Position numbers and translations under genes: made by a program
Notes under the pieces: generated by a model
Seen by the model: only the letters and a program-made list of their open reading frames with translations
Databases searched by the model: none
Told to the model about the DNA's origin: nothing
From: Nanobdellota archaeon
Lineage (GTDB): Archaea; Nanobdellota; Nanobdellia; Parvarchaeales; Parvarchaeaceae
Length of the DNA stretch: 64,000 nt
Assembly (NCBI GenBank): GCA_021797085.1
Contig: JAKAAG010000002.1
Span: forward strand, 3,544 to 67,543
Direction of reading: 5' to 3'
Shown here: piece by piece, positions 1-54,851 of the stretch
Layout: each line of letters opens with the position of its first letter
Numbering within the stretch: position 1 is the stretch's first letter

Positions 1-233
1 TCAGGACAACAGGATAGTGAGCTGGAGGATAAGAGCCAGTTCATCCTCAAACTTGTCGAAAATGATAAAGGGGGCAAAGGGCGCAATAATACAGCACAGT
101 CTAGTAAGAGCAATAGGAGATATATTCATAATATCAAACATAGTGACTTCCCAGTCTGAGCCTGAAACTTCAGAGGCAGAATAAGCTTTTAAATTAAGAA
201 AAGCTTAACTTTAAGTTTTAGTAAAAAGTAATA

Positions 234-2165
234 TTGTTTATGGATAATAACTTCAGCATCTCTTTTAAGACTACAGATGATATAAAGATACCTCCAAAGA
301 TAGTAGACCAAGTTATAGGACAGGAAGCTGCTGTCGAGATAATAAAGAAAGCAGCGATACAAAGAAGAAATGTTCTCCTAGTTGGAGCGCCCGGTACTGG
401 TAAAAGTATGTTGGGGCAGGCTTTGTCACAGTTATTGCCTGCTGAAAAACTAGTAGACATACTTGCATTTCCAAATCCAAAGGATGAAAATGAGCCTACT
501 ATAAAGACAGTTCCTGCAGGCGAGGGCAAAAGAATAGTCAACCAAGCAAAAGCCAGAAACATGTCTGCATTGGGTGGTGGAAACAACATGATAGTCTTTC
601 TGGGTTTCATAGTTGCTTTTTTTATAGCCACATATGTAGTTAGCATTCTAGTCTCCGATCAAAGGAATCCAATACTTGCAGCGGCAAATCAAATCTCTGG
701 TACATTGTTCATAATAACGATGCTTATAGGTTTTCTATTTGTTCTTTTGATGTATAGGCTTGGTAGAACATCTCTAAAGGCCAATGTGCCTGCCCCTAAA
801 CTTCTGCTTGACAATTCCAGTGCAAAGTATGCACCGTTTATAGACGCAACCGGTGCAAAGGAAGGAGCATTGCTTGGAGACGTTCAGCATGATCCTTTCC
901 AATCTGGAGGTTTAGGTACGCCTGCACATGAAAGAGTAGTTCTTGGAGATATACACAAAGCCAACGGCGGAGTTCTTTTCATAGATGAAATAGCAAACCT
1001 TTCGCCGGAAACACAGATACAACTGCTTACTGCAATGCAGGAAAAGAAATTAAGCATTACCGGAAGAAGTGAAAGGAGTGCCGGGGCGATGGTAAAAACT
1101 AACCCAGTTCCATGTGATTTTATACTCGTTGGAGCGGGCAATCCAAATACACTAAGTGAGATGAGCCCGGCCTTACGTTCTAGAATAAGGGGTTACGGTT
1201 ATGAGATTTATATGAATGAGACAATGCCAGATACTATAGAAAATAGGGATAAAATAGCAAGATTCGTTGCACAGGAAATTAGCAAGGATACTAAGATACC
1301 ACCATTTTCAAGGGATGCAGTTGTCGAAATACTAAATGAAGCCAGAAGAAAATCAAACAGGAAAGAGTCTTTGACTTTGAAATTAAGGGAATTGGGCGGA
1401 GTAATAAGAGTAGCAGGCGATATTGCCGTAGAAAACAAGCATTCAATTGTAAACAGAGATGACGTATTAAAAGCAAAGAACTACGCAGGCTCATTCGAGC
1501 AGCAGATTGCTGCAAGATACATAAAAGAGAAGAAAGACTATGATGTTATACAAGTAAGTGGATCTAGAGTAGGCAGGGTAAATGGATTAGCGGTAATAGA
1601 GAATTCTGATTCAGGTTTAATGCTGCCAATTGAAGCAATAGTTACCAAAAGCATGAGAAAAGGATCCGGAGAAATAATAGCAACTGGTAAACTTGGAGAG
1701 ATAGCTCAGGAGGCAGTAAAGAACGTATCTGCGATCGTTAAGCTTTATGCAAACAAGCCTTTAACTGACTATGATATCCATATACAGTTTTTGCAGGCTT
1801 ATTCCGGCGTTGAAGGGGACAGTGCAAGCGTAAGCGTTGCAGTTAGCATATTGTCTGCGCTTACTAACATACCTATAAAGCAGTCCGTGGCAATGACCGG
1901 TTCATTGTCAATATGGGGCGAGGTTCTTCCTGTTGGGGGAGTGTCAGCAAAGGTAGAAGCCGCCATAAACGCAGGAATCAAAGAGGTTATAATCCCCGCT
2001 TCTAATGTAGATGATTTAGTTTTGTCTGATCCTAAGGTTGTAAAAATAACGCCTGCAGATTCAATAATAGACGTAATAGAACATGCGATGGTTGACAACG
2101 CTCAGAAGAAAAAGCTACTTAATACCATAAAGAAATCCCTAAAAATAAAGCATGACAAAAAGTAA
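234..2165 (+). CDS. lon: Archaeal membrane-bound Lon protease (LonB)
   Basis: 643-aa ORF. Walker A is GAPGTGKS. Two hydrophobic TM helices are inserted in the AAA+ module before Walker B (LFIDEI). The C-terminal Lon proteolytic domain has the catalytic Ser motif GDSAS. Confidence 0.93.
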
Positions 2166-2859
2166 GGTTTTCTCGCATGTCTTTGATGAGGAAACACTAA
2201 GGAATGTAAATAAATTACAAGGAGATGGCTACATAGGCAATCTTCTCGGACCAATAGGAACCGGCAAAGAATCATACGTTTTTTACAGCAGAGACTTCCA
2301 CGATAAGTTAGTTGCAGTAAAGATACACAGACACAATATAAACTCATTCAAAAGTATCCCTTCTTACATACGTTTGAGAGGTAGGAAAAGTGGCGGTTTC
2401 ATAAAACAGATAAACGACTGGACAAAATTCGAATACAATTTTCTTTCAAAGGCCCATAACCTTGGGATAAACACTCCAGAACCTATCCGCTGCTATGAAA
2501 ACATAATAGTTATGCAGTTTGTAGGCACAGAAGACAATCCTTCTAAACCTGCTATAAAGGATAAGGATTTTGATGTAGAAAAATGGTATAACTTGATAAT
2601 AAGTTTTATAATTATTATGGCAAAAAATGGGATGATACACGGAGACTTAAGCCCATACAATATATTAAACTACAATGGGGAACCATTCATTATAGACTTT
2701 TCACAGGCATTAAAATTTTCTTCTTCAACAGTTAATTTTTTAATTAGGGATATAACTAACATAAATAACTGGTTTTTGTCGTTGAAATACCAAAAAATAA
2801 AAGAAGTAAATGATATAATTGATGAAATAGGTTACGAAGATGAAAACGAAGGAAGATAA
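2152..2859 (+). CDS. rio1: RIO-type serine kinase, Rio1-like (no N-terminal wHTH)
   Basis: Glycine loop [16 protein letters not shown] lysine, catalytic loop [10 protein letters not shown] and IDFSQA metal-binding motif. Overlaps lon by 14 nt. Confidence 0.85.
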
Positions 2860-3154
2860 GGTTTACCTTTTATTGACAAAGATACCAAGGGGAAAAGTTA
2901 CTACTTACGGTAGTTTAGCTAGAAAACTTAACATATCTCCAAGAGAAGTTGGTAAAATATTAAGCAGAAATGAACATCCTGAGAAATTTCCATGCTATAA
3001 AGTTGTAAGGTCTGATGGAAGTTTGGGAGGTTATACGATAGGAAAAAGAAATGATTCAAACACATTAAAGATTAAAAAGAAAAAATTGGTAAAGGATGGG
3101 GTAAAATTCCATAATAATAAAGTTGATCGTTCTTCTATGTTTTATAACAATTAA
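2840..3154 (+). CDS. MGMT-family DNA-binding domain protein (stand-alone C-terminal domain of O6-alkylguanine-DNA alkyltransferase)
   Basis: 104 aa. The segment IPRGKVTTYGSLA...PCYKVVRSDGSLGGY matches the HTH and PCHRV region of Ogt/MGMT, with Cys retained but His-Arg replaced by Tyr-Lys. Confidence 0.7.
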   Translation: MKTKEDKVYLLLTKIPRGKVTTYGSLARKLNISPREVGKILSRNEHPEKFPCYKVVRSDGSLGGYTIGKRNDSNTLKIKKKKLVKDGVKFHNNKVDRSSMFYNN

Positions 3155-3230
3155 ATTCATCCAATAATTTTAATTCATTTTAGTAATTTTTTCAGTTTTA
3201 TACAAATAAATAACTACAGGATAAAGAACC

Positions 3231-5006
3231 ATGATATTTATATTTATTGTTTTTTTATATAATACTATGTTATTCAGGCCATTATACAATGAGAAAAAAG
3301 AAGAGAAAAGAATAGATTCTAATATAGATCCGCAATTAAATAAAAGCTTGCTTATTTTAGCAAAAGGCAGGCGTTCCCAGTCAGCTCTAGAATACATGAT
3401 GACTTATGGCTGGGCTATTCTGATAATAGTTATAGTTGCAGTAATCCTATATTCAATGGGCATTTTTAATCCAAGTTCAAGTGTTACTTTTACAAGCACT
3501 GGCTTTTCACCTTTCAAAATTTCTTCTTCTTTATGCACTCCTCTGGGAATAGATTTCTCAATAATAGCCGGACCTATACCAAATGGGGCATCCTCTCTAA
3601 ATATAAATAAGTTATTTATAACTTCAGCAACAGGAACTAATACTAGTTCAGTAGAGTATTTACTTCCGTATACAATAAGTCTAACCTCGGGCAAATCAGC
3701 AACTATACTAATTCCTTCCATTTCTTGTACTTCAGTAGGTACTAAATACTCCTTATCAACAAACCTTGAATACAGTTATTCAACTACTGCTGGCAATGTC
3801 ATTACAAATGCTACTGGTACAATAGCGGGGACGGCATCGAGTCCGATACCAACAACATTTTCTGCGTTTGGATTACCTTCTGGTTCAGCTTTTACTGTAA
3901 ATTATGGAGGGGTAAATAAAACCAGTGTTGCTTCCTCTAATATTTCATTTGAATCGATGCAAAGCAATGTGTTTAAATTGTATCCAGTTGTATACGGCGG
4001 TGTAACATATTACCCAATTTATTCATCTGGTTCAAATCTACCAGTAGACTATAATTTAGAAGTAGACTTTATATCAAACTCAACGCCATTCTATATTGCA
4101 GATCAAGGAGCGGAAAATGCCACTGTTTTTTATCCTTATAATTTCTCATTAGGTAGGAACATAACATTAACTAGCAGTGATTATGGAAGCAGCGGAGTTT
4201 CTTTGATGCCGAATGGAGAGTACGCTTATGTTGTAGAAGATAATGGAATTAATAAGACTGCAGTTATATCTACATCAACTAATCAAATAGTTAAAAATAT
4301 AAGTATGCCAGAACCCTGCGCTATAACAATTACTCCTAATGGAGAGTATGCATATGTATCTAGCTGTAGAAATACAAATACAGTTGAAGTAATATCTACA
4401 TCCACTAATCAAATCATTAAAACAATTACGGTTGGAGATAATCCAATAGGCATTGCTGTTACACCCAATGGTAATTATGTTTATGTAGCTGATCAAGGAA
4501 GCAATAAAACATCAGTTATATCAACAAGTACAAATACCATAATAAAAAATATAAGTGGATTTTATTATCCAACAGGAATAGCAATTGCTCCCAATGGCTT
4601 AGTTTATGTCTCAAATTCTGGAAATGGGAGTGTAAGCATAATAAACAGTTTAAATAATAAATTAATCGGAAATATAGCCACTCCTTACAGTTCATCGCCC
4701 AGAGGTCTTGCCATAACTCGCAATGGCAAATACCTATATGTAACAAATGGCAATACTAAAGGAGTATCGGTTGTTTCGTTGTCAACAAACTCCGTTGTAG
4801 CTACTATCCCAATCCCCTATACTAAGCAATTTGCATTTAGTCCTAACGGTAAATATCTGTTTTCTACTACTCCTTATGCTTATCCCTACCAAATGGAAGT
4901 TATATACCTTATAAATAATAGTTATAAAAATATTACTGCAGGTAAAGGCTATTATAATATCTGCCCCATCAATAATGCCCCGACTGGGAATGGGGCAGAA
5001 TGTTAA
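3231..5006 (+). CDS. Class III (prepilin-type) signal-peptide surface protein with a Ser/Thr-rich stalk, a GLPSG-type domain and a C-terminal YVTN beta-propeller
   Basis: Motif KGRRSQ/SALEYMMTYGWAILIIVIVAVIL. The likely true start is the in-frame TTG at 3348, which gives a 10-aa leader. About six repeats of roughly 40 aa follow the pattern P-N-G-x-Y-x-Y-V ... V-I-S-T-S-T-N-x-I. N-x-S/T sequons are abundant. Confidence 0.75.
   Translation: MIFIFIVFLYNTMLFRPLYNEKKEEKRIDSNIDPQLNKSLLILAKGRRSQSALEYMMTYGWAILIIVIVAVILYSMGIFNPSSSVTFTSTGFSPFKISSSLCTPLGIDFSIIAGPIPNGASSLNINKLFITSATGTNTSSVEYLLPYTISLTSGKSATILIPSISCTSVGTKYSLSTNLEYSYSTTAGNVITNATGTIAGTASSPIPTTFSAFGLPSGSAFTVNYGGVNKTSVASSNISFESMQSNVFKLYPVVYGGVTYYPIYSSGSNLPVDYNLEVDFISNSTPFYIADQGAENATVFYPYNFSLGRNITLTSSDYGSSGVSLMPNGEYAYVVEDNGINKTAVISTSTNQIVKNISMPEPCAITITPNGEYAYVSSCRNTNTVEVISTSTNQIIKTITVGDNPIGIAVTPNGNYVYVADQGSNKTSVISTSTNTIIKNISGFYYPTGIAIAPNGLVYVSNSGNGSVSIINSLNNKLIGNIATPYSSSPRGLAITRNGKYLYVTNGNTKGVSVVSLSTNSVVATIPIPYTKQFAFSPNGKYLFSTTPYAYPYQMEVIYLINNSYKNITAGKGYYNICPINNAPTGNGAEC
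4083..4926 (+). repeat. In-frame tandem coding repeats (YVTN beta-propeller blades) with recognisable DNA-level similarity
   Basis: Repeated strings such as atatctacatcaactaatcaaata / atatctacatccactaatcaaatc / atatcaacaagtacaaataccata recur at about 120-nt spacing inside the CDS. Confidence 0.7.
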
Positions 5007-5011
5007 ATAAT

Positions 5012-5095
5012 CGCTGGGTGCAGGATTCGAACCTACGCAGGGAAAATCCCAACTGGCTCTCAAGGCCAGCGCTTTAACCGCTCAGCCAACCCAGC
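5012..5095 (-). tRNA. tRNA-Ser (anticodon UGA), class II, no intron
   Basis: The reverse complement reads GCTGGGT-TG-GCTGAGCGGTTAAAGC-...CTGGC CTTGAGA GCCAG...long variable arm...GTAGGTTCGAATCCTGC-ACCCAGC-G. The cloverleaf folds by eye. Confidence 0.9.
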
Positions 5096-5156
5096 ATTAA
5101 TTTAACTATAAATTCATTGTTAAATATAAGTATGTTTATTTTAAATTATAGCTGTT

Positions 5157-5981
5157 ATGGCAATAAAAGTAAATGATTTTTCACTGGATAGAACTCTTAA
5201 TTCCGGGCAGTTGTTTACTTTTTTTAAGGAAGATAACAGATGGTACTCATTTGTTGATAAACCTCTAGAGATAAGGCAGGATGGCAATGAATTAGTATAC
5301 TCCGGTTTAGATGAAAGTAATGTAAAGGAGCTTTTAGGACTTAATGACCCCATAAATGAGATAAAGGCAGAAGTGGATAAAGATGACTTCATAGACAAAG
5401 CTATAAGGTACTCTGGTTCTTTGCGTGTGGTAAAGAGTGGTATATGGCCAGCAACTTTGGGTTTTATTCTTTCAATACAATCGAATATCAATCTAATTTT
5501 AAGAAGGATAAAGGCAATGTCTAATTATTATGGGGCAGAAGGGGAAATAAACGGCAAAATATTAAAAAGTTTTCCATCCTTTGAAAAGATATACGAAAAA
5601 GGATACGATGACCTAAAACAGTTTAACCTTGGATTCAGAACTAAATTCGTATTTTCAGCGGCAGAGTATTTCTATAAGAATGAGATAGACGAAAGTTTCA
5701 CAGAAGAGGAAATCAGGAAAAATTTAATCAATATAAACGGTATAGGGGAGAAGGTACTGGACTGCATACTCCTTTATGGTATGCACAATCTTTCCGCCTT
5801 CCCAATGGACGTATGGATTTTGCGTACATTGTCGCTTTATTACAGCAATATACTTGGAAAAGCAAAGAGCTATAAAGATAAAAGAAGGGCGATGGTTGAT
5901 TATTTTGGAAGATACGGGGGATACGCCCAGCTGTTTATATATGACTATTCAAGATTGAATACAATAAGATCTAAAATTTGA
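5157..5981 (+). CDS. ogg: 8-oxoguanine DNA glycosylase/AP lyase (Ogg1-type HhH-GPD)
   Basis: N-terminal TLNSGQLFTF motif. The HhH-GPD region is INGIGEKVLDCILLYG...AFPMDVWI, with the catalytic Lys and Asp in place. Confidence 0.8.
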   Translation: MAIKVNDFSLDRTLNSGQLFTFFKEDNRWYSFVDKPLEIRQDGNELVYSGLDESNVKELLGLNDPINEIKAEVDKDDFIDKAIRYSGSLRVVKSGIWPATLGFILSIQSNINLILRRIKAMSNYYGAEGEINGKILKSFPSFEKIYEKGYDDLKQFNLGFRTKFVFSAAEYFYKNEIDESFTEEEIRKNLININGIGEKVLDCILLYGMHNLSAFPMDVWILRTLSLYYSNILGKAKSYKDKRRAMVDYFGRYGGYAQLFIYDYSRLNTIRSKI

Positions 5982-7071
5982 CCGTTTTTAGCTCCTTTAA
6001 GCTGTCTTTTATTATCCTATCCATCCCTATATCGCTTTCCAATTTTTTAATTATCTCTGGATTTGATTTTGTGGCAGGATTGTTTGATACTATCGAGCAG
6101 CAGTCCTTGTATTCCTCTATAGAAATGTCATAGAATCCATATCTTATGGATTTCTCTATTATCTCCCCTTTGTTATAACCTATAAACGGCCTGAAAACCG
6201 GCAATTGAATACCAAAGCTTATGGCATTTATATTCTCTATGGTTTGAGATGCAACTTGAGACAATGCATCCCCTGTTATTATGGCCATATATCCTTTTTC
6301 CCTGCTTATTTCGTCCGCTAATCTCAACAAGAATCGTTTGAAAAGTACAAGTTCATACCGTTTATCTATTTTTAATGCAGCAACGCTAAAATAATGAAAT
6401 GGCACAAGGTAAAGTGTCAAACCTGATTCTATCTCGCCCAATTTCTCCGCCACAGTTTTTATTTTGCTTTGGAGAGCAAAATCCGGAGAGTTCAACGCAT
6501 AAACATGCAATAAGTCAACCTTTGCGCCCCTTTTCATCATTTCCAATGGCGCTATAGCCGAATCTATCCCTCCAGAGAACAACGATAGCAGCTTTCCTGA
6601 ACTGCCTATTGGCAAGCCCCCCATGCCACGTTCTATGCCGTAATTTACTATGAACGAATCACTCATTATCTCTATTCTTATTTTTTTGCCGTTCTTGTCA
6701 AACCTTAACTTTAAATTTTTTGCAAGTTCTTCCTTTAATTTTAAAGATGTTTTCTCATATCTTTTGTCAACTCTTTTAACGTCAATGTTTAGATTCTTGT
6801 TTTCTCCTATTATTTTATCTATTAATTCGAGCAATTCTTTTTCATCCCTGTCAATTCTGTAAGCTTCACTGATCCATGCTACACCCGGCGTTAATTTCAA
6901 CTTTTTTATGTCTTCTAAGCTGTAATCCTCCAAAACAAGCCTGCTTTCAACTGCTTTGACGGGTTTGTTTATCTTTTCCTTTATATTTTTTATGAGAAGG
7001 GCTTGAAAATATCCTCTTTGTTTTCCTTTCAATGCTATTTCATCATAGTGAATAGATAGTATTTTTTTCAT
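5971..7071 (-). CDS. thiI: tRNA 4-thiouridine synthase ThiI (THUMP + PP-loop, no rhodanese domain)
   Basis: PP-loop SGGIDS with N-terminal ferredoxin-like/THUMP region. The start at 7071 forms an ATGA overlap with the archease stop. The longest ORF extends to 7092. Confidence 0.88.
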   Translation of the reverse strand: MKKILSIHYDEIALKGKQRGYFQALLIKNIKEKINKPVKAVESRLVLEDYSLEDIKKLKLTPGVAWISEAYRIDRDEKELLELIDKIIGENKNLNIDVKRVDKRYEKTSLKLKEELAKNLKLRFDKNGKKIRIEIMSDSFIVNYGIERGMGGLPIGSSGKLLSLFSGGIDSAIAPLEMMKRGAKVDLLHVYALNSPDFALQSKIKTVAEKLGEIESGLTLYLVPFHYFSVAALKIDKRYELVLFKRFLLRLADEISREKGYMAIITGDALSQVASQTIENINAISFGIQLPVFRPFIGYNKGEIIEKSIRYGFYDISIEEYKDCCSIVSNNPATKSNPEIIKKLESDIGMDRIIKDSLKELKTVKF

Positions 7072-35926: not shown

Positions 35927-36454
35927 ATGGATAAAAAAGGGCAGATATTCACAATAGATTTGCTTATTGCTTTGTTTATATTCCTGCTTTTATTCACAAC
36001 TGTTCTGCTTTTTCTTTACTCAAATGCAGACATAAACAATTCTTACTCCTCATATTATTCACAGATAACCTCAAATTATATCAATAACCTAGCAGTTCAA
36101 GGGGCCAATTCCCTACTTGGTTCAGAGGGTTACCCCTCCAATTGGTATTCTTTTTCGTGCAACCAAATAAAGCAGCTTGGCGTAATGTACAATAACTTAG
36201 AGGTATCTCCAATAAAGCTGTATAATCTTTCTACCTTGCCAGTTTCGTGTCTGTCTTCTCTGTTAAAAGGCGGTGATTCATTTAATATAACGTTTTACTA
36301 TCTAAACGGTTCAATCCTAAATTTAGGAGGAAGAGAAGTAACTGCCGGCTTTCCAATAGATTACTCTTCCAGCTATGTTGCTTCTATACAGAGATTTGCT
36401 GTATTATACCCTGGAAATGAAATAATTAGGCTTTCTTACACGGAGTGGTCATGA
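35927..36454 (+). CDS. Class III signal-peptide (type IV pilin-like) protein
   Basis: N-terminus MDKKGQ/IFTIDLLIALFIFLLLF, followed by a secreted domain rich in Ser, Tyr and N-x-S/T. Confidence 0.7.
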   Translation: MDKKGQIFTIDLLIALFIFLLLFTTVLLFLYSNADINNSYSSYYSQITSNYINNLAVQGANSLLGSEGYPSNWYSFSCNQIKQLGVMYNNLEVSPIKLYNLSTLPVSCLSSLLKGGDSFNITFYYLNGSILNLGGREVTAGFPIDYSSSYVASIQRFAVLYPGNEIIRLSYTEWS

Positions 36455-37161
36455 AAAAAGGGCAGGTTTTTACGATTGATCTTGTTGTGGGGAGTATAAT
36501 AATACTTAGTGTTATAGCCTCTGCATACGCAATAACAAGTTATTACCTTACATTAAATAGTTCAATAACAACTAACAATGACTTCCTATCCCAGATTTAT
36601 TCTGCAGTGTCCTCCTTTTCAGTTGTTTCTTCCACAACAAACCAGCTTTTGTTATTTCAGAACGGTGGTTCGGTTTCCACGTTAAATTCCTATATATCAT
36701 CTGTTTTAAACCCAGAGATATCTAGCCCATTTCTCCTTGAGGTATTTACGAAATCTAATTATTCCAATAATGATACCCCCTCAAACCTTATATTTTCATA
36801 TAATTCTAGGTTTTCCCCATCTTCTTCTTACTCCACTTTTTATCAGCCGTTGCTTATAACAAATTACAGCAGTGCCTGCGGCTCATCGTGTAATTCATCT
36901 CTGTCTATAAAAAGCGTTTTTCCTTCTTATAACGATACGATAAATGCGCCAGATTGCAATGTGCTTTATGGAAATGGAACGGTAACGGGATGGACCATAT
37001 TAAATGATACTCCTTCGGGGTACTGCACAGTTCTTGTGCCGTCCTATGCAGATCCAAACAGCTATGATGTTGTAACCTCCTCTTCAACAGGCATTTCAAC
37101 CGGCTCGGCTACTTTGCACATTCTTGCTTTGGATCTTTTGAAATTTGAAGTCCAGAAATAA
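36451..37161 (+). CDS. Class III signal-peptide (type IV pilin-like) protein, paralogous N-terminus
   Basis: N-terminus MKKGQ/VFTIDLVVGSIIILSVI. ATGA overlap with the upstream pilin-like gene. Many N-glycosylation sequons. Confidence 0.7.
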   Translation: MKKGQVFTIDLVVGSIIILSVIASAYAITSYYLTLNSSITTNNDFLSQIYSAVSSFSVVSSTTNQLLLFQNGGSVSTLNSYISSVLNPEISSPFLLEVFTKSNYSNNDTPSNLIFSYNSRFSPSSSYSTFYQPLLITNYSSACGSSCNSSLSIKSVFPSYNDTINAPDCNVLYGNGTVTGWTILNDTPSGYCTVLVPSYADPNSYDVVTSSSTGISTGSATLHILALDLLKFEVQK

Positions 37162-44934: not shown

Positions 44935-45327
44935 ATGATTTCAAACAGAAAAGCACAGGGTTTGCCTATCAATACTATAATACTTATTGCAGTAGGCTTG
45001 CTTATACTTGTTCTTTTGATTACCTTTGTACTTGGGGGCTTTAAAGGATTGGGAGCAGCCTCTCCATCGAGTTCTACTCTTTCAGCATTCTCAGCAACAT
45101 GCTCAACTTACTCTACTACAACTCCTGCAAGCCTTGGTTTTCAGCAGTGGTGCTCACATACTGTAGCCAATCCTTCAGGTTCTGGAGTTTATAATTGTTA
45201 TTCTAATTTGGCGGACCCTCCTGGAACTGATACCGCTACAATAGTGTTGTCTAATGGTACTACAGCAGCAGGGCCATCAGGAACAGATGCTCCAACAGGT
45301 TCAGGCATTATAAACTGCCCGACATAA
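44935..45327 (+). CDS. Small class III signal-peptide (pilin-like) protein, Cys- and Ser/Thr-rich
   Basis: N-terminus MISNRKAQG/LPINTIILIAVGLLILVLL, followed by an approximately 90-aa domain with five Cys. Confidence 0.6.
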   Translation: MISNRKAQGLPINTIILIAVGLLILVLLITFVLGGFKGLGAASPSSSTLSAFSATCSTYSTTTPASLGFQQWCSHTVANPSGSGVYNCYSNLADPPGTDTATIVLSNGTTAAGPSGTDAPTGSGIINCPT

Positions 45328-45389: not shown

Positions 45390-46025
45390 ATGAAGAAAAG
45401 ACATACTTTGACGAATGTATTGATGGCTGTATTTTTAATAATAATCCTTGTAGCGATATTCTATGCATTCAAAACGCACATAGTTCTTTTTAATTCCTGT
45501 TATTTTTCAAATGAAACTTTGGCGGTAAATAACTCCGGGCCGTTCTGTCTACCAAATAACGGTGTCAACATAATAATAAACCGTTCTATACTTTCGTATT
45601 ACCCAAATTCTACTTTGGCCATACATGACCAGAATGTTTCTGCTCTGCCATTCTCATTTTTTGAGGGTAAACCTTTGATAACCATATGGAATGAGCCGAC
45701 GAGTTTAGGTCCTGATTCATATTCCTTCCTTACAATACCTGACACTTTCAAAGTGCATATGCAGTATAATGCATCTGTTACAACTAATTTCATTGTTATG
45801 ACCAATGAACAGTACGTTAACTGGGTAAATACAAAGAACCTTAACAATAACTACGTGGCTATAGAAACCGGTAAAAATATTTCATTGTGGTTCAATCAAA
45901 GCACCGGGTGTGCAGGATACGTTGCAGTGATTGAATCAGTCTCAGGAAGCGCAGTTGCTATCTCACCCGATGAAAAAATACTTTATGACCCGGCAAGTTC
46001 ACCTACAGGAGCATGTGCTGGTTGA
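45390..46025 (+). CDS. Secreted/anchored protein with N-terminal TM helix, unknown function
   Basis: 211 aa. N-terminal signal-anchor LMAVFLIIILVAIFYAF and a beta-rich body with N-x-S/T sequons. Confidence 0.5.
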   Translation: MKKRHTLTNVLMAVFLIIILVAIFYAFKTHIVLFNSCYFSNETLAVNNSGPFCLPNNGVNIIINRSILSYYPNSTLAIHDQNVSALPFSFFEGKPLITIWNEPTSLGPDSYSFLTIPDTFKVHMQYNASVTTNFIVMTNEQYVNWVNTKNLNNNYVAIETGKNISLWFNQSTGCAGYVAVIESVSGSAVAISPDEKILYDPASSPTGACAG

Positions 46026-46063
46026 AATGTCAATTTTAAATTCTTTAATGTACATTATATAAC

Positions 46064-46675
46064 ATGGAAATCGATATTTTTGATGCGGTAAATGAACTAA
46101 AGAGCTTTTACGAAGAGAATGCACCTCTTTCGAAGATAAGTGGTTTGATAACTTACAAAAAGGTATCTATAAGCCTTGAATACAAGGAAGGCGTTATAAA
46201 GATAAAAGCCCAGCATCCATTGAGCATAAAAATCTATAAGATTTATAATATCCTATTGAGGCTTTTCCTTGTTAAAGCTGTAAAGTTAACCATTGATTTT
46301 GTAGAAAATAACCAGCAGAAATCAGTTTCAAAGCAATTCGGCTCTGATGAGAATATTGACCCAGTGATAGAAGATCTTAAGGGTTTGCCACATGATAGCA
46401 TAACGGATATAGTGATTGATACTGATTACTTCAAGATAGTTGAAACACAGGATATGAGCGATAATGTTTCTATAATGCTAAAAAAGAACGGCAAGAAAGA
46501 GCTTTTTAAAAGCCTTTCAAATTATCTTTTCCCCTTCGTAAACATGCCTGCAAATGAGTCTTTGCTTGAGGAAATAAACTTCTCAAAGCAGGAAGACCAA
46601 TTAACAGTCGATATCTTGATGAAGATTGACGGCTCCCCCATGGGAATAAAATCAAAGAAGGTTAGGTTGGTTTAA
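46064..46675 (+). CDS. Hypothetical cytoplasmic protein, first gene of the KaiC-like/GTPase/Roadblock cassette
   Basis: 203-aa ORF with no recognisable motif. It ends 1 nt before the next gene. Confidence 0.5.
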   Translation: MEIDIFDAVNELKSFYEENAPLSKISGLITYKKVSISLEYKEGVIKIKAQHPLSIKIYKIYNILLRLFLVKAVKLTIDFVENNQQKSVSKQFGSDENIDPVIEDLKGLPHDSITDIVIDTDYFKIVETQDMSDNVSIMLKKNGKKELFKSLSNYLFPFVNMPANESLLEEINFSKQEDQLTVDILMKIDGSPMGIKSKKVRLV

Positions 46676-46676
46676 T

Positions 46677-47345
46677 ATGGAAGGAATAAAAACTGGTTTT
46701 AAGAATTTTGATGAGCTTACCAATGGTTTGGATTACAGAAAAGTGTATTCCATTTTTGGAAATAAAGAATCCGGAAAAGAGCAGTTTATATACAAAGTTG
46801 TTCAATCGGCTCTTTCGTCAAAAAATGCGATAGTCTATGTATTAACCTCTAAGTCATACTCCGACTTAATAAATGAATTTAACTCTAGAGGGATAAACAT
46901 AAATCCCTACCTTGGAGAGGATTTTAAGATATTGGATGACTTCAGCAGGACAAACTCACCTAGTGCTACTGACAATTCCTACGCAAAAATATTAAATGGG
47001 CCGTTGGATTTAACGGGTTTATCCGTTTCTTTATCGAGCGCAAACAGTGATTTTGTAAAGGATGCAAAGCCGGTAATAAACATATTTGACAATCTTTCAA
47101 ATCTACTTATATACAACAACCCTGTAACTGTATATAGATTTCTTCAGTTTGTTTGTGGTAAGGCCAAATTGGCAGGAATAACTACCTTGTTTTCAATCGA
47201 TATAGCTATGCATCCCCCCGAAGTTATAGAAACTATAAAAAACCTTTCGGATGCAATAATAGATCTAAAGCTTGAAGAGGGTAAAAGATATTTCAGGCTT
47301 TCAGGTACAAGCAAGGAAGTGCTTGAGTTTAAAGAGCTTGAATGA
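46677..47345 (+). CDS. KaiC/RecA-superfamily protein (ArlH/KaiC-like) with atypical Walker A
   Basis: The N-terminus GIKTGFKNFDELTNGL fits the KaiC/RadA pattern. Walker A is GNKESGKE (Ser/Thr replaced by Glu), the Walker B-like strand is VINIFD, and the C-terminal block is EGKRYFRL. Confidence 0.65.
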   Translation: MEGIKTGFKNFDELTNGLDYRKVYSIFGNKESGKEQFIYKVVQSALSSKNAIVYVLTSKSYSDLINEFNSRGININPYLGEDFKILDDFSRTNSPSATDNSYAKILNGPLDLTGLSVSLSSANSDFVKDAKPVINIFDNLSNLLIYNNPVTVYRFLQFVCGKAKLAGITTLFSIDIAMHPPEVIETIKNLSDAIIDLKLEEGKRYFRLSGTSKEVLEFKELE

Positions 47346-47381
47346 TATATTTAAAAGCAATAATTACCATAATCTTGTTAT

Positions 47382-48626
47382 ATGGCAGAGTTTAAAGGAT
47401 TGGATGGAGTATCGGATAAGGATTTTGATCCTTATTTTGGAATAGCTAGGTTGGACGAGCAGCTTAAGGGGATACCTTCTAAGAAGATTGTATTGATATC
47501 TGCTTCACCATCAGTGGGGAATGAGGTTTTTGGATATCAAATAATACATAAGAATATAACCTCTGGAGTAAAAGTTCTTGTTTTTCTGAATAGAACCTCT
47601 CCACAGTCTTATCTTACAGACATGAAGGAATACGATTTTCCAGCTAATGACAATTTATTCATAATAGACGCTTACAGTGGTATAACAGGAATAAAGTCTG
47701 ATGAAACGGACCACATAAAAGTTATAAGTAATCCTTATGATAAGGAAGAAGTAAAGACAAAGGTTATCAAGGAAATTGGTAATGGATATGGGCTTTTCGT
47801 AATAGACTCATTTTCATTGCTTGCCGATTTCTTCGACTTTTCGTTTGCCGCTTCATTCATGAATGATATAAAACAAGAAATTATAAACAAAGATTCGGCA
47901 GCGGTGCTTCTTTTCACAGATTGGGGCTATGAAAAACAAAATGTAGATAAACTGCTTTCAAATGTTAATTCCACTATAGAAGTTAAAGGAATAGAGAAAC
48001 GTGTGATTTTTGGGCAGTATTTTGCGGTATTAAAGTGTGATTGGGTTGAAGAGAAACAGCAGACATTTTCATCCGTTCTATTCAAGGCAATAAAACCTGG
48101 AGGAATAAAGGTTTACTTCCCTAAGATTTTAGTTACAGGACCAACAGATGCAGGTAAAAGTTCATTCATACACAGTGCTTCTAAGAACGCTGTCAGTGTA
48201 GATAAACTTGGCGGAACGATAGCTTTGGACCATGGAACAGTCGATTTTCAAGGTTATCGCGCAGATTTGTTTGGAACGCCTGGACAGGAAAGGTTCGATC
48301 CTTTGCTTAAAATGCTTGGCGGAGAAGCAATCGGAGTATTCTTAGTAGTAGATTCAACTAAACCTGAGCAATTTCCTAGGGCAGTGGAAATGCTTAGGAA
48401 AACAGAGACTTATGGTTTACCTGTAGTAGTTATTGCAAATAAAGCAGATCTTAATGGTGCACTTAAAAAGGAGGAAATAAGAGAAAAGCTGCACTTGGAT
48501 TCTGCAATAACACTGGTACAGACAGTCGCTGAGGACCTATCGAAAGTAGATCCAAACGAACCAACAAAATTAAAGGAGGCGGGAATAAACGAGGCGTTAT
48601 CTGCTTTATTTAAGCAGTTAACATAA
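47382..48626 (+). CDS. Fusion protein: P-loop-less KaiC-like domain + COG2229/MglA-related small GTPase
   Basis: Residues 1-245 follow the KaiC-like strand/helix pattern (GIARLDEQLKGIP; LFVIDSFS; final GGIKVY), but the P-loop position reads SASPSVGNE. Residues about 247-414 have G1 GPTDAGKS, G3 GTPGQERF and G4 NKAD. Confidence 0.7.
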   Translation: MAEFKGLDGVSDKDFDPYFGIARLDEQLKGIPSKKIVLISASPSVGNEVFGYQIIHKNITSGVKVLVFLNRTSPQSYLTDMKEYDFPANDNLFIIDAYSGITGIKSDETDHIKVISNPYDKEEVKTKVIKEIGNGYGLFVIDSFSLLADFFDFSFAASFMNDIKQEIINKDSAAVLLFTDWGYEKQNVDKLLSNVNSTIEVKGIEKRVIFGQYFAVLKCDWVEEKQQTFSSVLFKAIKPGGIKVYFPKILVTGPTDAGKSSFIHSASKNAVSVDKLGGTIALDHGTVDFQGYRADLFGTPGQERFDPLLKMLGGEAIGVFLVVDSTKPEQFPRAVEMLRKTETYGLPVVVIANKADLNGALKKEEIREKLHLDSAITLVQTVAEDLSKVDPNEPTKLKEAGINEALSALFKQLT

Positions 48627-48656
48627 TTATTTAAATAAGAAAATCGTAAATTACAT

Positions 48657-49031
48657 ATGGCTACAAAATCAGAACAATTAAAAAGCGTTTTACAAAGATT
48701 AAGCACAGTTGGAGGAATAAAGGCATCTGCTGTTATATCAGCTAATGGTTTGCCAATGGTTTCTTTAATGCCAGAGGATGTAGATCCAAATACTTTTGCA
48801 GCAATGCTTGCTTCAATGGTAGGTTCAGCAGAGACGGCCATTAAATCCTTGGGTGCAAAGAATACTCTAGAAAGGGTAGTTGCAGAGTCAAAGGACATAA
48901 GGGTGGTAGCAGTACAAGCAGGTACAGATGCAATACTTACAATAATGATTGATCCAAACACAAATTATGGTTTGATTCTTTTGGAATCATCTAAAGCTTC
49001 AAATGAAATCGCCAGTATAATGAAGCAGTAA
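48657..49031 (+). CDS. Roadblock/LC7 (MglB-like) domain protein
   Basis: 124 aa. The segment GGIKASAVISANGLPMVS...FAAMLASMVGSAE...ILTIMIDPNTNYGLILLE fits the Roadblock/LC7 pattern. Confidence 0.8.
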   Translation: MATKSEQLKSVLQRLSTVGGIKASAVISANGLPMVSLMPEDVDPNTFAAMLASMVGSAETAIKSLGAKNTLERVVAESKDIRVVAVQAGTDAILTIMIDPNTNYGLILLESSKASNEIASIMKQ

Positions 49032-49043
49032 TCTAGAACTTAA

Positions 49044-49454
49044 ATGTCATTTGTTCTTTTCATCTGCAAATACAATAATGGTAGAAGCCAAGTAGCGGAA
49101 GCCTTTTTTAATAACATTACCAAGAAGCACAAATCTATAAGTGCAGCAGGCAGTTCAGTCGGCAAAGGTATAAATTCTTTAGACATAAAATTAATGAAGG
49201 AAAAATTTGGGATAGATATGAGTGGACAGTTTTCAAAAGCCCCTTCTGATTATTTACTAAAAAATGCGGATAAAATAATAATAGTCTGTGATCCTAATGA
49301 CTGCATACTTATACCCAAAAGCTATGTAGAGAAGGCAGAGCATTGGTATATCCCTGAATTGGACGGTCGTTCTGTCGAAGAGAAAGTGAAAATAATGGAA
49401 GAGATTCAACAAAAGGTTAAAGAACTAATTTCAGAGTTAGATAAAGAAAAATAA
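49044..49454 (+). CDS. Low-molecular-weight phosphotyrosine phosphatase / ArsC-family protein
   Basis: N-terminal active-site loop CKYNNGRS (C-x5-R-S). 136 aa. Confidence 0.75.
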   Translation: MSFVLFICKYNNGRSQVAEAFFNNITKKHKSISAAGSSVGKGINSLDIKLMKEKFGIDMSGQFSKAPSDYLLKNADKIIIVCDPNDCILIPKSYVEKAEHWYIPELDGRSVEEKVKIMEEIQQKVKELISELDKEK

Positions 49455-49811: not shown

Positions 49812-49895
49812 GCTCAGGTTGCGTAACCTGGCATCGCGTAAGCCTGGAGAGCTTATGGGAGCAATCCCTTGAGGGTCCGAATCCCTCCCTGAGCG
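49812..49895 (+). tRNA. tRNA-Ser (anticodon GGA), class II, no intron
   Basis: Acceptor GCTCAGG/CCTGAGC-G, anticodon stem TAAGC/GCTTA with loop CTGGAGA, long variable arm, T-arm GAGGGTCCGAATCCCTC. An oligo-T tract follows. Confidence 0.9.
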
Positions 49896-50004
49896 CTTTT
49901 TATATTTTTTAGAAAGGCAGAAAAATAGTATCAAAAAATGTTTAGTTAAAATTTTCTTTTAATGTCAAGGTCACATTTAAATATAAAAAAATGTTAATTC
50001 TTAA

Positions 50005-54407: not shown

Positions 54408-54851
54408 TCAGCAAGATAAGTAATATATATTATAATTTTTGCCTGCCGGTATCTTTAATATTTTTGTCTGCTTACCCGAGTTAGTTGCGTTTGAGCATAG
54501 TTCACCGCTAGGCGTTAATACTGGATAGATTTCCAAGGAATAATTTCCGGGAGAAGAGCTAACGCTTATGCTGTTGTTTAAATAATACGTGTAATTCTGG
54601 CCGTTGAAGTTTATTGTCCAGTAATAAATTGAGCTTGGAAAAGTTGAACATGTAGAGCTGCAGTTATATGCAGTGAAATTAGTTGTAACCTCAGAAAGTT
54701 GCCCCGGGCTGGCAGATTTTATCCCACTTACTAAGCTGCTAAGATTTGTAAGTATATAACTTCTTATAGTTGAATCAAATAGCAATAGTATTATAATCGC
54801 AACTATGGCTATGATAAGCACCCAAGTCCCAAAGTTTACTTGACCTTTCAT
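54408..54851 (-). CDS. Class III signal-peptide (pilin-like) protein
   Basis: N-terminus MKGQ/VNFGTWVLIIAIVAIIILLLF, followed by a Ser/Asn/Tyr-rich secreted domain with sequons. Confidence 0.6.
   Translation of the reverse strand: MKGQVNFGTWVLIIAIVAIIILLLFDSTIRSYILTNLSSLVSGIKSASPGQLSEVTTNFTAYNCSSTCSTFPSSIYYWTINFNGQNYTYYLNNSISVSSSPGNYSLEIYPVLTPSGELCSNATNSGKQTKILKIPAGKNYNIYYLSC

Follow-up and report, generated by a model that had tools for sequence, protein, structure and literature searches.

The stretch analysed here (hereafter the window) comprises 64,000 nucleotides (nt) from an assembly of a Nanobdellota archaeon assigned to Parvarchaeales (contig JAKAAG010000002.1, positions 3,544 to 67,543), and the subject of this report is a compact cassette of four genes in it, at positions 46064-49031, that encode an orphan protein, a stand-alone KaiC-like protein, a KaiC-like domain fused to a small GTPase, and a Roadblock/LC7 protein. 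The nearest relatives of the encoded proteins are from Candidatus Parvarchaeota/Parvarchaeum (ARMAN-type DPANN archaea; 87-94% identity), and the remaining window consists of archaeal housekeeping genes (RNA polymerase B/A operon, ABCE1, Rad50, GatD/E and threonyl-tRNA synthetase (ThrRS)). The four open reading frames (ORFs) of the cassette are co-directional, all on the plus strand, with spacers of 1, 36 and 30 nt, just as a first-pass annotation made from the letters alone had read them; likewise, each of the motifs that it had named was found, with GNKESGKE in gene 2 and SASPSVGNE, GPTDAGKS, GTPGQERF and NKAD in gene 3. The cassette is composed of the following features:

46064-46675, plus strand: gene 1, 203 amino acids (aa), orphan alpha/beta protein, Parvarchaeales-specific accessory
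46677-47345, plus strand: gene 2, 222 aa, stand-alone single-domain KaiC/ArlH-like protein
47382-48626, plus strand: gene 3 (whole ORF), 414-aa fusion of a KaiC-like domain and a GTPase
47382-48116, plus strand: gene 3, residues 1-245, inactivated KaiC-like domain
48117-48626, plus strand: gene 3, residues 246-414, complete small GTPase domain
48657-49031, plus strand: gene 4, 124 aa, Roadblock/LC7 protein (MglB-type), presumed regulator of the fused GTPase

A three-gene core conserved across archaea

For the fusion protein encoded by gene 3, 723 relatives were found in the database. Homologues covering its full length at 40-44% identity, annotated merely as 'GTP-binding protein' or 'hypothetical', were found in Altiarchaeales, Nanoarchaeota, Methanosarcinales, Methanoperedens and the anaerobic methanotrophic archaea (ANME) of group ANME-2. 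Scanning of species-representative genomes yielded at least 564 matching stretches, the best 80 of which are full-length fusions from about a dozen archaeal orders; the lineages represented among these 80 are Parvarchaeota, Altiarchaeota, Woese/Nanoarchaeia, Methanosarcinales, Archaeoglobaceae, Methanocellales, Hydrothermarchaeales, Thermoplasmata, Methanobacterium and Halobacteria.

For comparison of gene order, homologues of the window proteins were mapped onto 83 loci (designated by L numbers) that harbour 84 fusion genes. The order KaiC-fusion-Roadblock was found at 58 of the 84 fusion genes, and a Roadblock gene is directly adjacent at about 70 of them (median gap of 0 nt). Median gaps at the junctions are 0-1 nt, with most junctions either overlapping or not longer than 5 nt. 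Six loci, in Thermoplasmata, Methanobacterium and Halobacteriales, exhibit the permuted order Roadblock-(V4R)-fusion-KaiC. Tight spacing of co-directional ORFs is commonplace in prokaryotes; the arrangement seen here is taken as non-random because it is conserved across phyla, and since such conservation goes far beyond what inheritance of the order from a common ancestor would produce across phyla, the trio of genes 2, 3 and 4 represents a functional unit. The core of the cassette is shown by this comparison of sequences to be an ancient three-protein archaeal unit, consisting of a KaiC-like paralogue, a fusion of a dead KaiC domain to a GTPase, and a Roadblock protein.

The unit had been proposed to comprise all four genes. 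This holds for genes 2-4, which are neighbours in distant genomes, but not for gene 1, which is linked to the trio only in Parvarchaeales. Homologues of gene 1 form 35 clusters (at 90% identity), all from Parvarchaeota, and 10 representatives, all from DPANN, were found among 1.84 billion proteins. The junction of genes 1 and 2 is 1 nt or overlapping in the window, in seven Parvarchaeota loci (L005-L011) and in Rehaiarchaeum (L085), which carries genes 1-4 with a fusion 49% identical to the window protein. Two further homologues (L084, 5001-5645; L086, 5001-5618), one from a Haiyanarchaeum and the other from a DPANN-like contig, are located immediately 5' of an operon for pyruvate:ferredoxin oxidoreductase (gamma/delta/alpha/beta), and the trio is absent from their surroundings. 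Gene 1, being restricted to DPANN and adjacent to that oxidoreductase elsewhere, is therefore a Parvarchaeales-level addition and not part of the ancient core.

The gene 1 product matched no Pfam or NCBIfam family above cut-off (DUF1717 and phi29 GP3 appeared below threshold). Its AlphaFold model has a predicted local distance difference test score (pLDDT) of 91 and a predicted template modelling score (pTM) of 0.85. Assignment to a known fold was rejected, as Foldseek against PDB and BFVD returned nothing at E <= 0.001; recurrent matches to CYTH/triphosphate-tunnel and Roadblock/LAMTOR folds (E from 0.01 to 0.3; template modelling (TM) score from 0.1 to 0.3) were not significant. A divergent V4R or Roadblock protein was also rejected, with hhalign probabilities of 0.1% and 1%, respectively.

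Other lineages carry other accessory genes: (i) V4R genes, in Archaeoglobaceae (in the order KaiC-fusion-Roadblock-V4R), in Thermoplasmata and, inside the operon as well, in one Halobacteriota metagenome-assembled genome (MAG); (ii) PAS-helix-turn-helix (PAS-HTH) genes, in Woesearchaeota and Hydrothermarchaeales; (iii) a canonical KaiC (214 bits, Pfam KaiC), in Methanobacterium and Woese/Nanoarchaeia; (iv) a small predicted membrane protein of 106-124 aa, encoded directly after the fusion gene in Woese/Nanoarchaeia and before the Roadblock gene where one is present, which hints at membrane anchoring of the complex in these lineages. The V4R and membrane protein genes are located as follows:

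V4R genes: L015, 8860-9462; L019, 9498-10094; L070, 7421-8005; L071, 9515-10102
Further V4R genes: L048, 2382-2978; L069, 7463-7981; L078, 3861-4379; L014, 6385-6972
Small membrane protein genes: L004, 6187-6561; L018, 9200-9526; L020, 9209-9529

In two Halobacteriota MAGs (L014 and L029), two fusion genes plus three to five Roadblock genes were found within about 10 kb; thus the module can be duplicated. Separately, a Methanosarcinales-type trio is carried by a 6.6-kb contig binned as an Anaerolineales bacterium (L056; JAIWAT010000091.1), which is likely a mis-binned archaeal contig.

Encoded proteins, candidate promoters and flanking genes

The N-terminal domain of the fusion had been read as KaiC-like with a lost P-loop, and this is borne out by domain, profile and structure searches. 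Residues 20-245 matched Pfam KaiC at 30.8 bits (cut-off of 26.6), the domain profile matched PH0284, PH0186 and SSO2452 in PDB (E from 4e-22 to 7e-15), and Foldseek retrieved FlaH/ArlH (4yds; TM 0.78), PH0284 (0.82) and SSO2452 (0.80). The Walker A of PH0284, GPGTGKT, is aligned to 'sPgvene' in the fusion family and to SPSVGNE in the window, where Lys is replaced by Asn and Thr by Glu. Neither GK[ST] nor the KaiC Glu pair was found in any of the 82 distinct fusion proteins, and the Walker B Asp is often replaced by Gly or Glu. Given that none of the 82 carries GK[ST], the fused KaiC domain is an ancient pseudo-ATPase, and the same alignment shows, at the level of sequence, that its P-loop was lost before the archaeal orders diverged. 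The fused domain and the gene 2 protein are full-length homologues (hhalign probability of 99.8%; 13% identity).

The KaiC-like nature of gene 2 was likewise upheld: the protein scores above the Pfam cut-offs for KaiC (PF06745; 43.4 versus 26.6 bits) and DUF7504 (37.7 bits), and its family profile matched KaiC (E = 3.5e-31), PH0284 (1.2e-25) and SSO2452 (within 1e-31 to 1e-24) in PDB. Its Walker A, GNKESGKE, retains the Lys and has Glu in place of Ser/Thr, so that the pattern of active KaiC-like proteins, GxxxxGK[ST], is found neither in gene 2 nor in the N-terminal domain of gene 3 of the window. The Walker A Gly and Lys occur in 64 of the 65 orthologues, whose identity with the window protein falls to 21-31% in distant lineages; the residue after the Lys is E in 35, D in 16 and S in 11, with canonical GKS in Archaeoglobaceae, Hydrothermarchaeales and Methanobacterium. 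The KaiC motif 'VTFEES' is aligned with 'VLTSKS' in the window, the catalytic Glu pair thus being Ser-Lys, and this position is Arg-Glu in most of the Methanosarcinales proteins, while the Walker B Asp is retained in the window (FDNLS). The first-pass annotation had regarded this protein, too, as a pseudo-ATPase, a reading that needs correction in that only its hydrolysis is in doubt. As the Lys is kept in nearly all relatives and canonical GKS occurs in some lineages, nucleotide binding is probably retained by gene 2, and the protein is probably poorly or non-hydrolytic.

With respect to known KaiC-family proteins, gene 2 and gene 3 scored 21.0 and 20.6 bits against the ArlH equivalog of NCBIfam (cut-off of 215), and the window encodes neither a PilB/ArlI-like ATPase nor a further KaiC-like paralogue. 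Circadian KaiC is a tandem CI-CII double-domain protein with KaiB (and KaiA) partners; in each of the two proteins here a single KaiC-like domain was found, and Pfam scanning of the neighbouring genes gave no sign of KaiB.

The C-terminal part of gene 3 is a complete GTPase, as had been claimed: residues 247-410 matched TIGR00231 (64 bits) and Pfam Arf (44.5 bits), with Ras also matched, and motifs G1 to G4 are all present (GPTDAGKS, Thr279, FGTPGQERF and NKAD, respectively). G1, G3 and G4 are near-invariant in 83 sequences, 79 of which have an identical FGTPGQERF; at G2, the window has GGTIALDHG and most relatives have GTT, without an Arg. A G3 lacking Asp is characteristic of the MglA family, with GTPGQ in Groups 2-5 and TVPGQ in Group 1, and in Groups 2-5 a Thr replaces the switch-I Arg (PMC4316618). 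By its GTPGQ and Thr, the gene 3 GTPase is of the MglA Group 2-5 sequence type; it is not a Group 1 MglA, since there is no arginine finger beside the G2 Thr. A minority of the sequences (for example, P0031, P0044, P0046, P0049 and P0107) carry NKxN instead of NKxD at G4, and these variants might have an altered base specificity. Unlike the single-domain MglA (about 160-200 aa), the GTPase is here the C-terminal domain of a 414-aa fusion. In the AlphaFold model of gene 3 (63 sequences; pLDDT 88; pTM 0.79) there is no linker, and the last strand of the KaiC domain (241-244) continues into strand 1 of the GTPase (248-252).

Gene 4 was confirmed as a Roadblock/LC7 protein by Pfam Robl_LC7 (PF03259; 52.8 bits versus a cut-off of 23) and by PDB profile matches to an archaeal-type Roadblock protein (9jue; E = 5e-13) and to MglB of M. 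xanthus (E = 3e-4). Helix 2 (FAAMxAxMxGAAETA) and an RDGL motif are conserved among 58 orthologues, with Asp in 93% and Gly in 100% of the family. A conserved helix 2 and an Asp-Gly pair are features given for MglB proteins, the Asp-Gly pair for those that are coupled to Group 2-5 GTPases (PMC4316618).

Outside the coding regions, TATA-like TTTAAAT(A) elements are located 25-35 nt 5' of the starts of genes 1, 3 and 4. These elements and the features immediately downstream of the cassette are:

46034-46041, plus strand: TATA-box-like TTTTAAAT, about 25 nt 5' of the gene 1 start, possible promoter of genes 1 and 2
47346-47356, plus strand: TATA-box-like TATATTTAAAA in the spacer of genes 2 and 3, possible internal promoter
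48630-48637, plus strand: TATA-box-like TTTAAATA in the spacer of genes 3 and 4, possible separate promoter of the Roadblock gene
49044-49454, plus strand: gene 5, similar to low-molecular-weight protein tyrosine phosphatase (LMW-PTP)/ArsC (Pfam LMWPc, 53 bits), 12 nt past the Roadblock gene
49812-49896, plus strand: tRNA-Ser (GGA), in the gap downstream of the cassette

A motif like TTTTAAAT is found at equal distance in L005, L007, L008, L010 and L085. The TATATTTAAAA element is present in the window, L005, L007 and L085 and is missing where the spacer is 12-18 nt (L008 and L010), and the position of TTTAAATA is kept in six of the six Parvarchaeales loci compared; those at genes 1 and 4 are thus position-conserved in divergent Parvarchaeales. 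Across the window the TTTAAATA motif is not enriched (21 matches versus 18 expected), so the promoter calls are made from position and conservation only. Genes 1 and 2 are probably co-translated, and further promoters may serve genes 3 and 4 individually.

Gene 5 is a fifth co-directional ORF that had been overlooked. Its candidacy as a KaiC phosphatase partner and member of the cassette was rejected, because its synteny is confined to the three closest relatives and the Rehaiarchaeum gene at that position is unrelated. Downstream, the block is limited by a convergent gene and the tRNA-Ser gene. An antisense ORF of 183 aa (48410-48961, minus strand) overlaps genes 3 and 4, and similar ones were found in 16 related loci; it is probably a shadow of the conserved coding on the sense strand and not a gene.

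Proposed mechanism and alternative explanations

The picture that we favour, and consider rather probable as a whole, is an MglA/MglB-like GTPase switch that is mounted on a KaiC-like hetero-oligomer still binding ATP via gene 2; the confidence in any single step of the mechanism is much less. These steps are modelled on RecA/KaiC-family oligomers and on the MglA/MglB precedent. The gene 2 protein and the dead KaiC domain of gene 3 would assemble into a RecA/KaiC-style hetero-oligomer (a ring or a dimer), as we infer from their paralogy and the tight coupling of their genes. Within it, ATP or ADP sites would reside only on gene 2, and their occupancy or phosphorylation would alter the scaffold, an alteration that would reach the GTPase domain by way of the rigid junction. 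MglB acts on MglA as a GTPase regulator; after this model, a dimer of the Roadblock protein would engage the GTP-bound form and control how long it persists, acting as a GTPase-activating protein (GAP) and possibly as a guanine nucleotide exchange factor (GEF). The GTP-bound multivalent complex would then recruit an effector. In Parvarchaeales, gene 1 would probably bind gene 2 as an adaptor or input subunit particular to this lineage, and would fill the slot that is held by V4R, PAS-HTH or canonical KaiC in other lineages.

Several observations weigh against this picture: (i) loci in Altiarchaeota and several in Woesearchaeota have no adjacent stand-alone KaiC partner, so this partner is not obligatory everywhere; (ii) the best PDB matches of the GTPase domain are Arf1, Arl and Rab8 (E of 5e-9 and weaker), with no MglA in the top 60; (iii) the Roadblock protein of the window reads ANGL, with Asn-Gly for Asp-Gly; (iv) gene 4 scored 16.7 bits against the MglB equivalog NF052242 of NCBIfam, whose cut-off is 200; (v) given the TATA-like motifs 5' of genes 3 and 4, the cassette may not be a single transcript.

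The first of these points bears on the alternative that the scaffold is static, that is, that the KaiC-like parts sense no nucleotide and only oligomerise to present the GTPases, with regulation residing in GTP and Roadblock. Loci in Altiarchaeota and some in DPANN that manage without an adjacent gene 2 are in line with it, as are the lack of any ATPase motif in the fused domain, the loss of the Mg-coordinating Ser/Thr from gene 2 in 51 of 65 orthologues and the loss of both catalytic Glu in Parvarchaeales. However, the near-universal Walker A Gly and Lys of gene 2, at such low overall identity, are hard to explain unless the phosphate-binding loop is used, and three lineages keep a canonical GKS. 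A static scaffold is considered rather unlikely.

A second alternative concerns the output only, with the module controlling the assembly or placement of type IV pilus-like filaments in DPANN archaea. MglA, MglB and SofG act on type IV pili in Myxococcus, and the KaiC-like ArlH acts in the archaellum. In the window, as in all Parvarchaeota loci, the cassette is immediately preceded by a type IV pilin-like gene (44935-45327, plus strand), whose product has an invariant class III signal-peptide N-terminus, N[RK]KAQGLPINTIILIA(V/I)GLLILVL, and a variable Cys-containing C-domain, and a gene for an N-terminally membrane-anchored, Cys-containing protein (45390-46025, plus strand; syntenic in Parvarchaeota). 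Furthermore, the fusion gene follows a co-directional pilus-like locus in the Nanoarchaeia loci L020 and L002, which share a contig (PilB-like ATPase, four or five pilin-like genes and a canonical KaiC at L020, 512-9529), and in L004 (PilB-like ATPase and two PilC-like genes before the fusion gene; 193-6937), and pilin-like genes flank L073, L075 and L081. Roadblock proteins of arCOG02603 and KaiC-like ATPases are also often encoded in archaeal type IV pilus loci (PMC4858521).

Against this reading, the genome has about one pilin-like gene per 16 kb: four pilin-like ORFs lie in the 64 kb of the window, and the rough chance of finding one within 6 kb is about 50%. Moreover, the window has no PilB-like ATPase, Rehaiarchaeum has genes 1-4 without either of the two upstream genes, and the trio has no pilus genes beside it in Methanosarcinales, Methanoperedens, Archaeoglobaceae or Thermoplasmata. 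Given this density of pilin-like ORFs and a link that is confined to DPANN, the pilus is not taken as the main explanation, and we regard this output as unlikely. The further class III pilin-like ORFs of the window are at 35927-36454 (plus strand; MDKKGQIFTIDL), 36445-37161 (plus strand; MVMKKGQVFTIDL) and 54408-54851 (minus strand; MKGQVNFGTW).

A housekeeping GTPase that is associated with translation and tied to ribosome biogenesis is a very improbable third alternative. The trio is kept in DPANN archaea such as Parvarchaeota and Nanoarchaeia, its neighbours in Methanosarcinales and Methanoperedens are YhbY/CRM, ribosomal protein S19e, a PDCD5-like gene and cysteinyl-tRNA synthetase (CysRS), and S19e is also near the trio in two Thermoplasmata loci. 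Yet this neighbourhood is mostly found within one order and may be plain synteny, the S19e of Thermoplasmata is on the opposite strand and several genes off, and the GTPase is of the Ras-like/MglA type with a Roadblock partner rather than from the TRAFAC ribosome-assembly families. Finally, chance adjacency or gene decay, as which the degenerate ATPase motifs could be read, is effectively refuted by the intact ORFs, by the same degenerate residues and many other positions being conserved across phyla, by the conserved order and overlapping junctions at 58 of 84 fusion genes, and by the confident AlphaFold models. A defence system was also dropped as a candidate, PADLOC having given only two marginal matches (E from 0.004 to 0.008; 13-15 bits).

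The GTPase switch on a KaiC-like hetero-oligomer could be extended to a near pan-archaeal core regulator, in which the trio would tie a GTPase switch for the positioning of cell-surface or membrane machinery (for example, type IV pili in DPANN) to the adenine-nucleotide or phosphorylation state of the cell, and in which the V4R versions would be forerunners of eukaryotic complexes of Roadblock/longin proteins, TRAPPC3 and small GTPases. This extension is speculative, and we would not expect it to hold in full.

Comparison with known systems

The first-pass annotation knew of no characterised system with this fusion, and curated families, PADLOC and the searched literature indeed assign it to no family of defined function. 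The fusion is absent from PDB entries, NCBIfam gives a generic domain match only, and it is not described in the literature searched for KaiC with Roadblock, GTPase, MglA, COG2229 or iKaiC, a search that did not include Makarova et al. 2017; an earlier, purely computational mention is possible. The 2014 census of small GTPases by Wuichet and Sogaard-Andersen took single-domain proteins only and reported archaeal Group 4 MglA as lacking conserved neighbours (PMC4316618); fusions like gene 3 were thus outside its scope.

Few archaeal signalling systems are well understood. We class the cassette as a switch of the MglA/MglB type whose KaiC-like scaffold is conserved but unstudied, and it joins in one polypeptide and operon the KaiC-like 'hubs' and the MglA/MglB-type switches, both of which had been proposed from comparative genomics alone. 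As the module recurs, conserved, in DPANN archaea as well as in methanogens, ANME and Archaeoglobi, the link between KaiC and GTPase is directly testable. The cassette also appears to offer a natural case of a pseudo-ATPase beside a nucleotide-binding paralogue.

Compared with MglA/MglB of Myxococcus xanthus and Thermus thermophilus, the cassette shares a Ras-like GTPase without the G3 Asp next to a Roadblock regulator, and its family retains the catalytic Gln and a conserved Roadblock helix 2. It differs in its G3 (GTPGQ, not TVPGQ), in having no intrinsic arginine finger, in the fusion of the GTPase to a KaiC-like domain, in the lack of RomR/RomX or Frz partners and in sequence scores that favour Arf/Rab structures.

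The conservons (CvnA-D) of actinobacteria and the mycobacterial Mfp operons combine a GTPGQ-type MglA-family GTPase, a Roadblock protein, an ATP-binding signalling protein and an accessory protein (PMC4316618). The cassette is similarly an operon with a GTPGQ-type GTPase, a Roadblock protein, a partner of ATP-binding type and an accessory protein. In contrast to the conservon, however, it is archaeal, its partner is KaiC/RecA-like and not the histidine-kinase-like CvnA, and its GTPase is covalently fused; no Pfam match to a histidine kinase or to DUF742 (CvnC) was found in genes 1-4 or the flanking genes.

As in ArlH (FlaH), PH0284, PH0186 and SSO2452, the KaiC-like part of the cassette has a single RecA-like KaiC fold. 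ArlH and PH0284 have a full Walker A, whereas of the two copies here one is without a P-loop and the other has GK-Glu; moreover, unlike the case of ArlH, no archaellum genes are near the cassette.

Also comparable are inactivated KaiC (iKaiC) proteins and the proposed archaeal KaiC hubs, with which the cassette shares degenerate KaiC-like domains and signalling partners, and gene 2 matches DUF7504. Both iKaiC domains and KaiC signalling hubs were reportedly proposed for archaea by Makarova, Galperin and Koonin in 2017. In papers that cite the hub proposal (including PMC5847659), the partners named are REC, HalOD1 and DEATH-like domains, with no GTPase fusion among them.

Finally, the pairing of a Roadblock-fold protein with a small GTPase is shared with the Roadblock/longin-GTPase regulatory complexes of eukaryotes and Asgard archaea (Ragulator-Rag and TRAPP), and V4R is found in the same operon in the Archaeoglobaceae and Thermoplasmata relatives. 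TRAPPC3/Bet3 has been proposed to descend from V4R (PMC3791482, citing Podar et al. 2008). Unlike in those systems, the window has no V4R and the GTPase has no Rag-type C-terminal Roadblock fusion. The likeness is one of architecture only; that a single archaeal operon can hold Roadblock, V4R (TRAPPC3-like) and small GTPase genes together is relevant to how the eukaryotic GTPase regulatory complexes arose.

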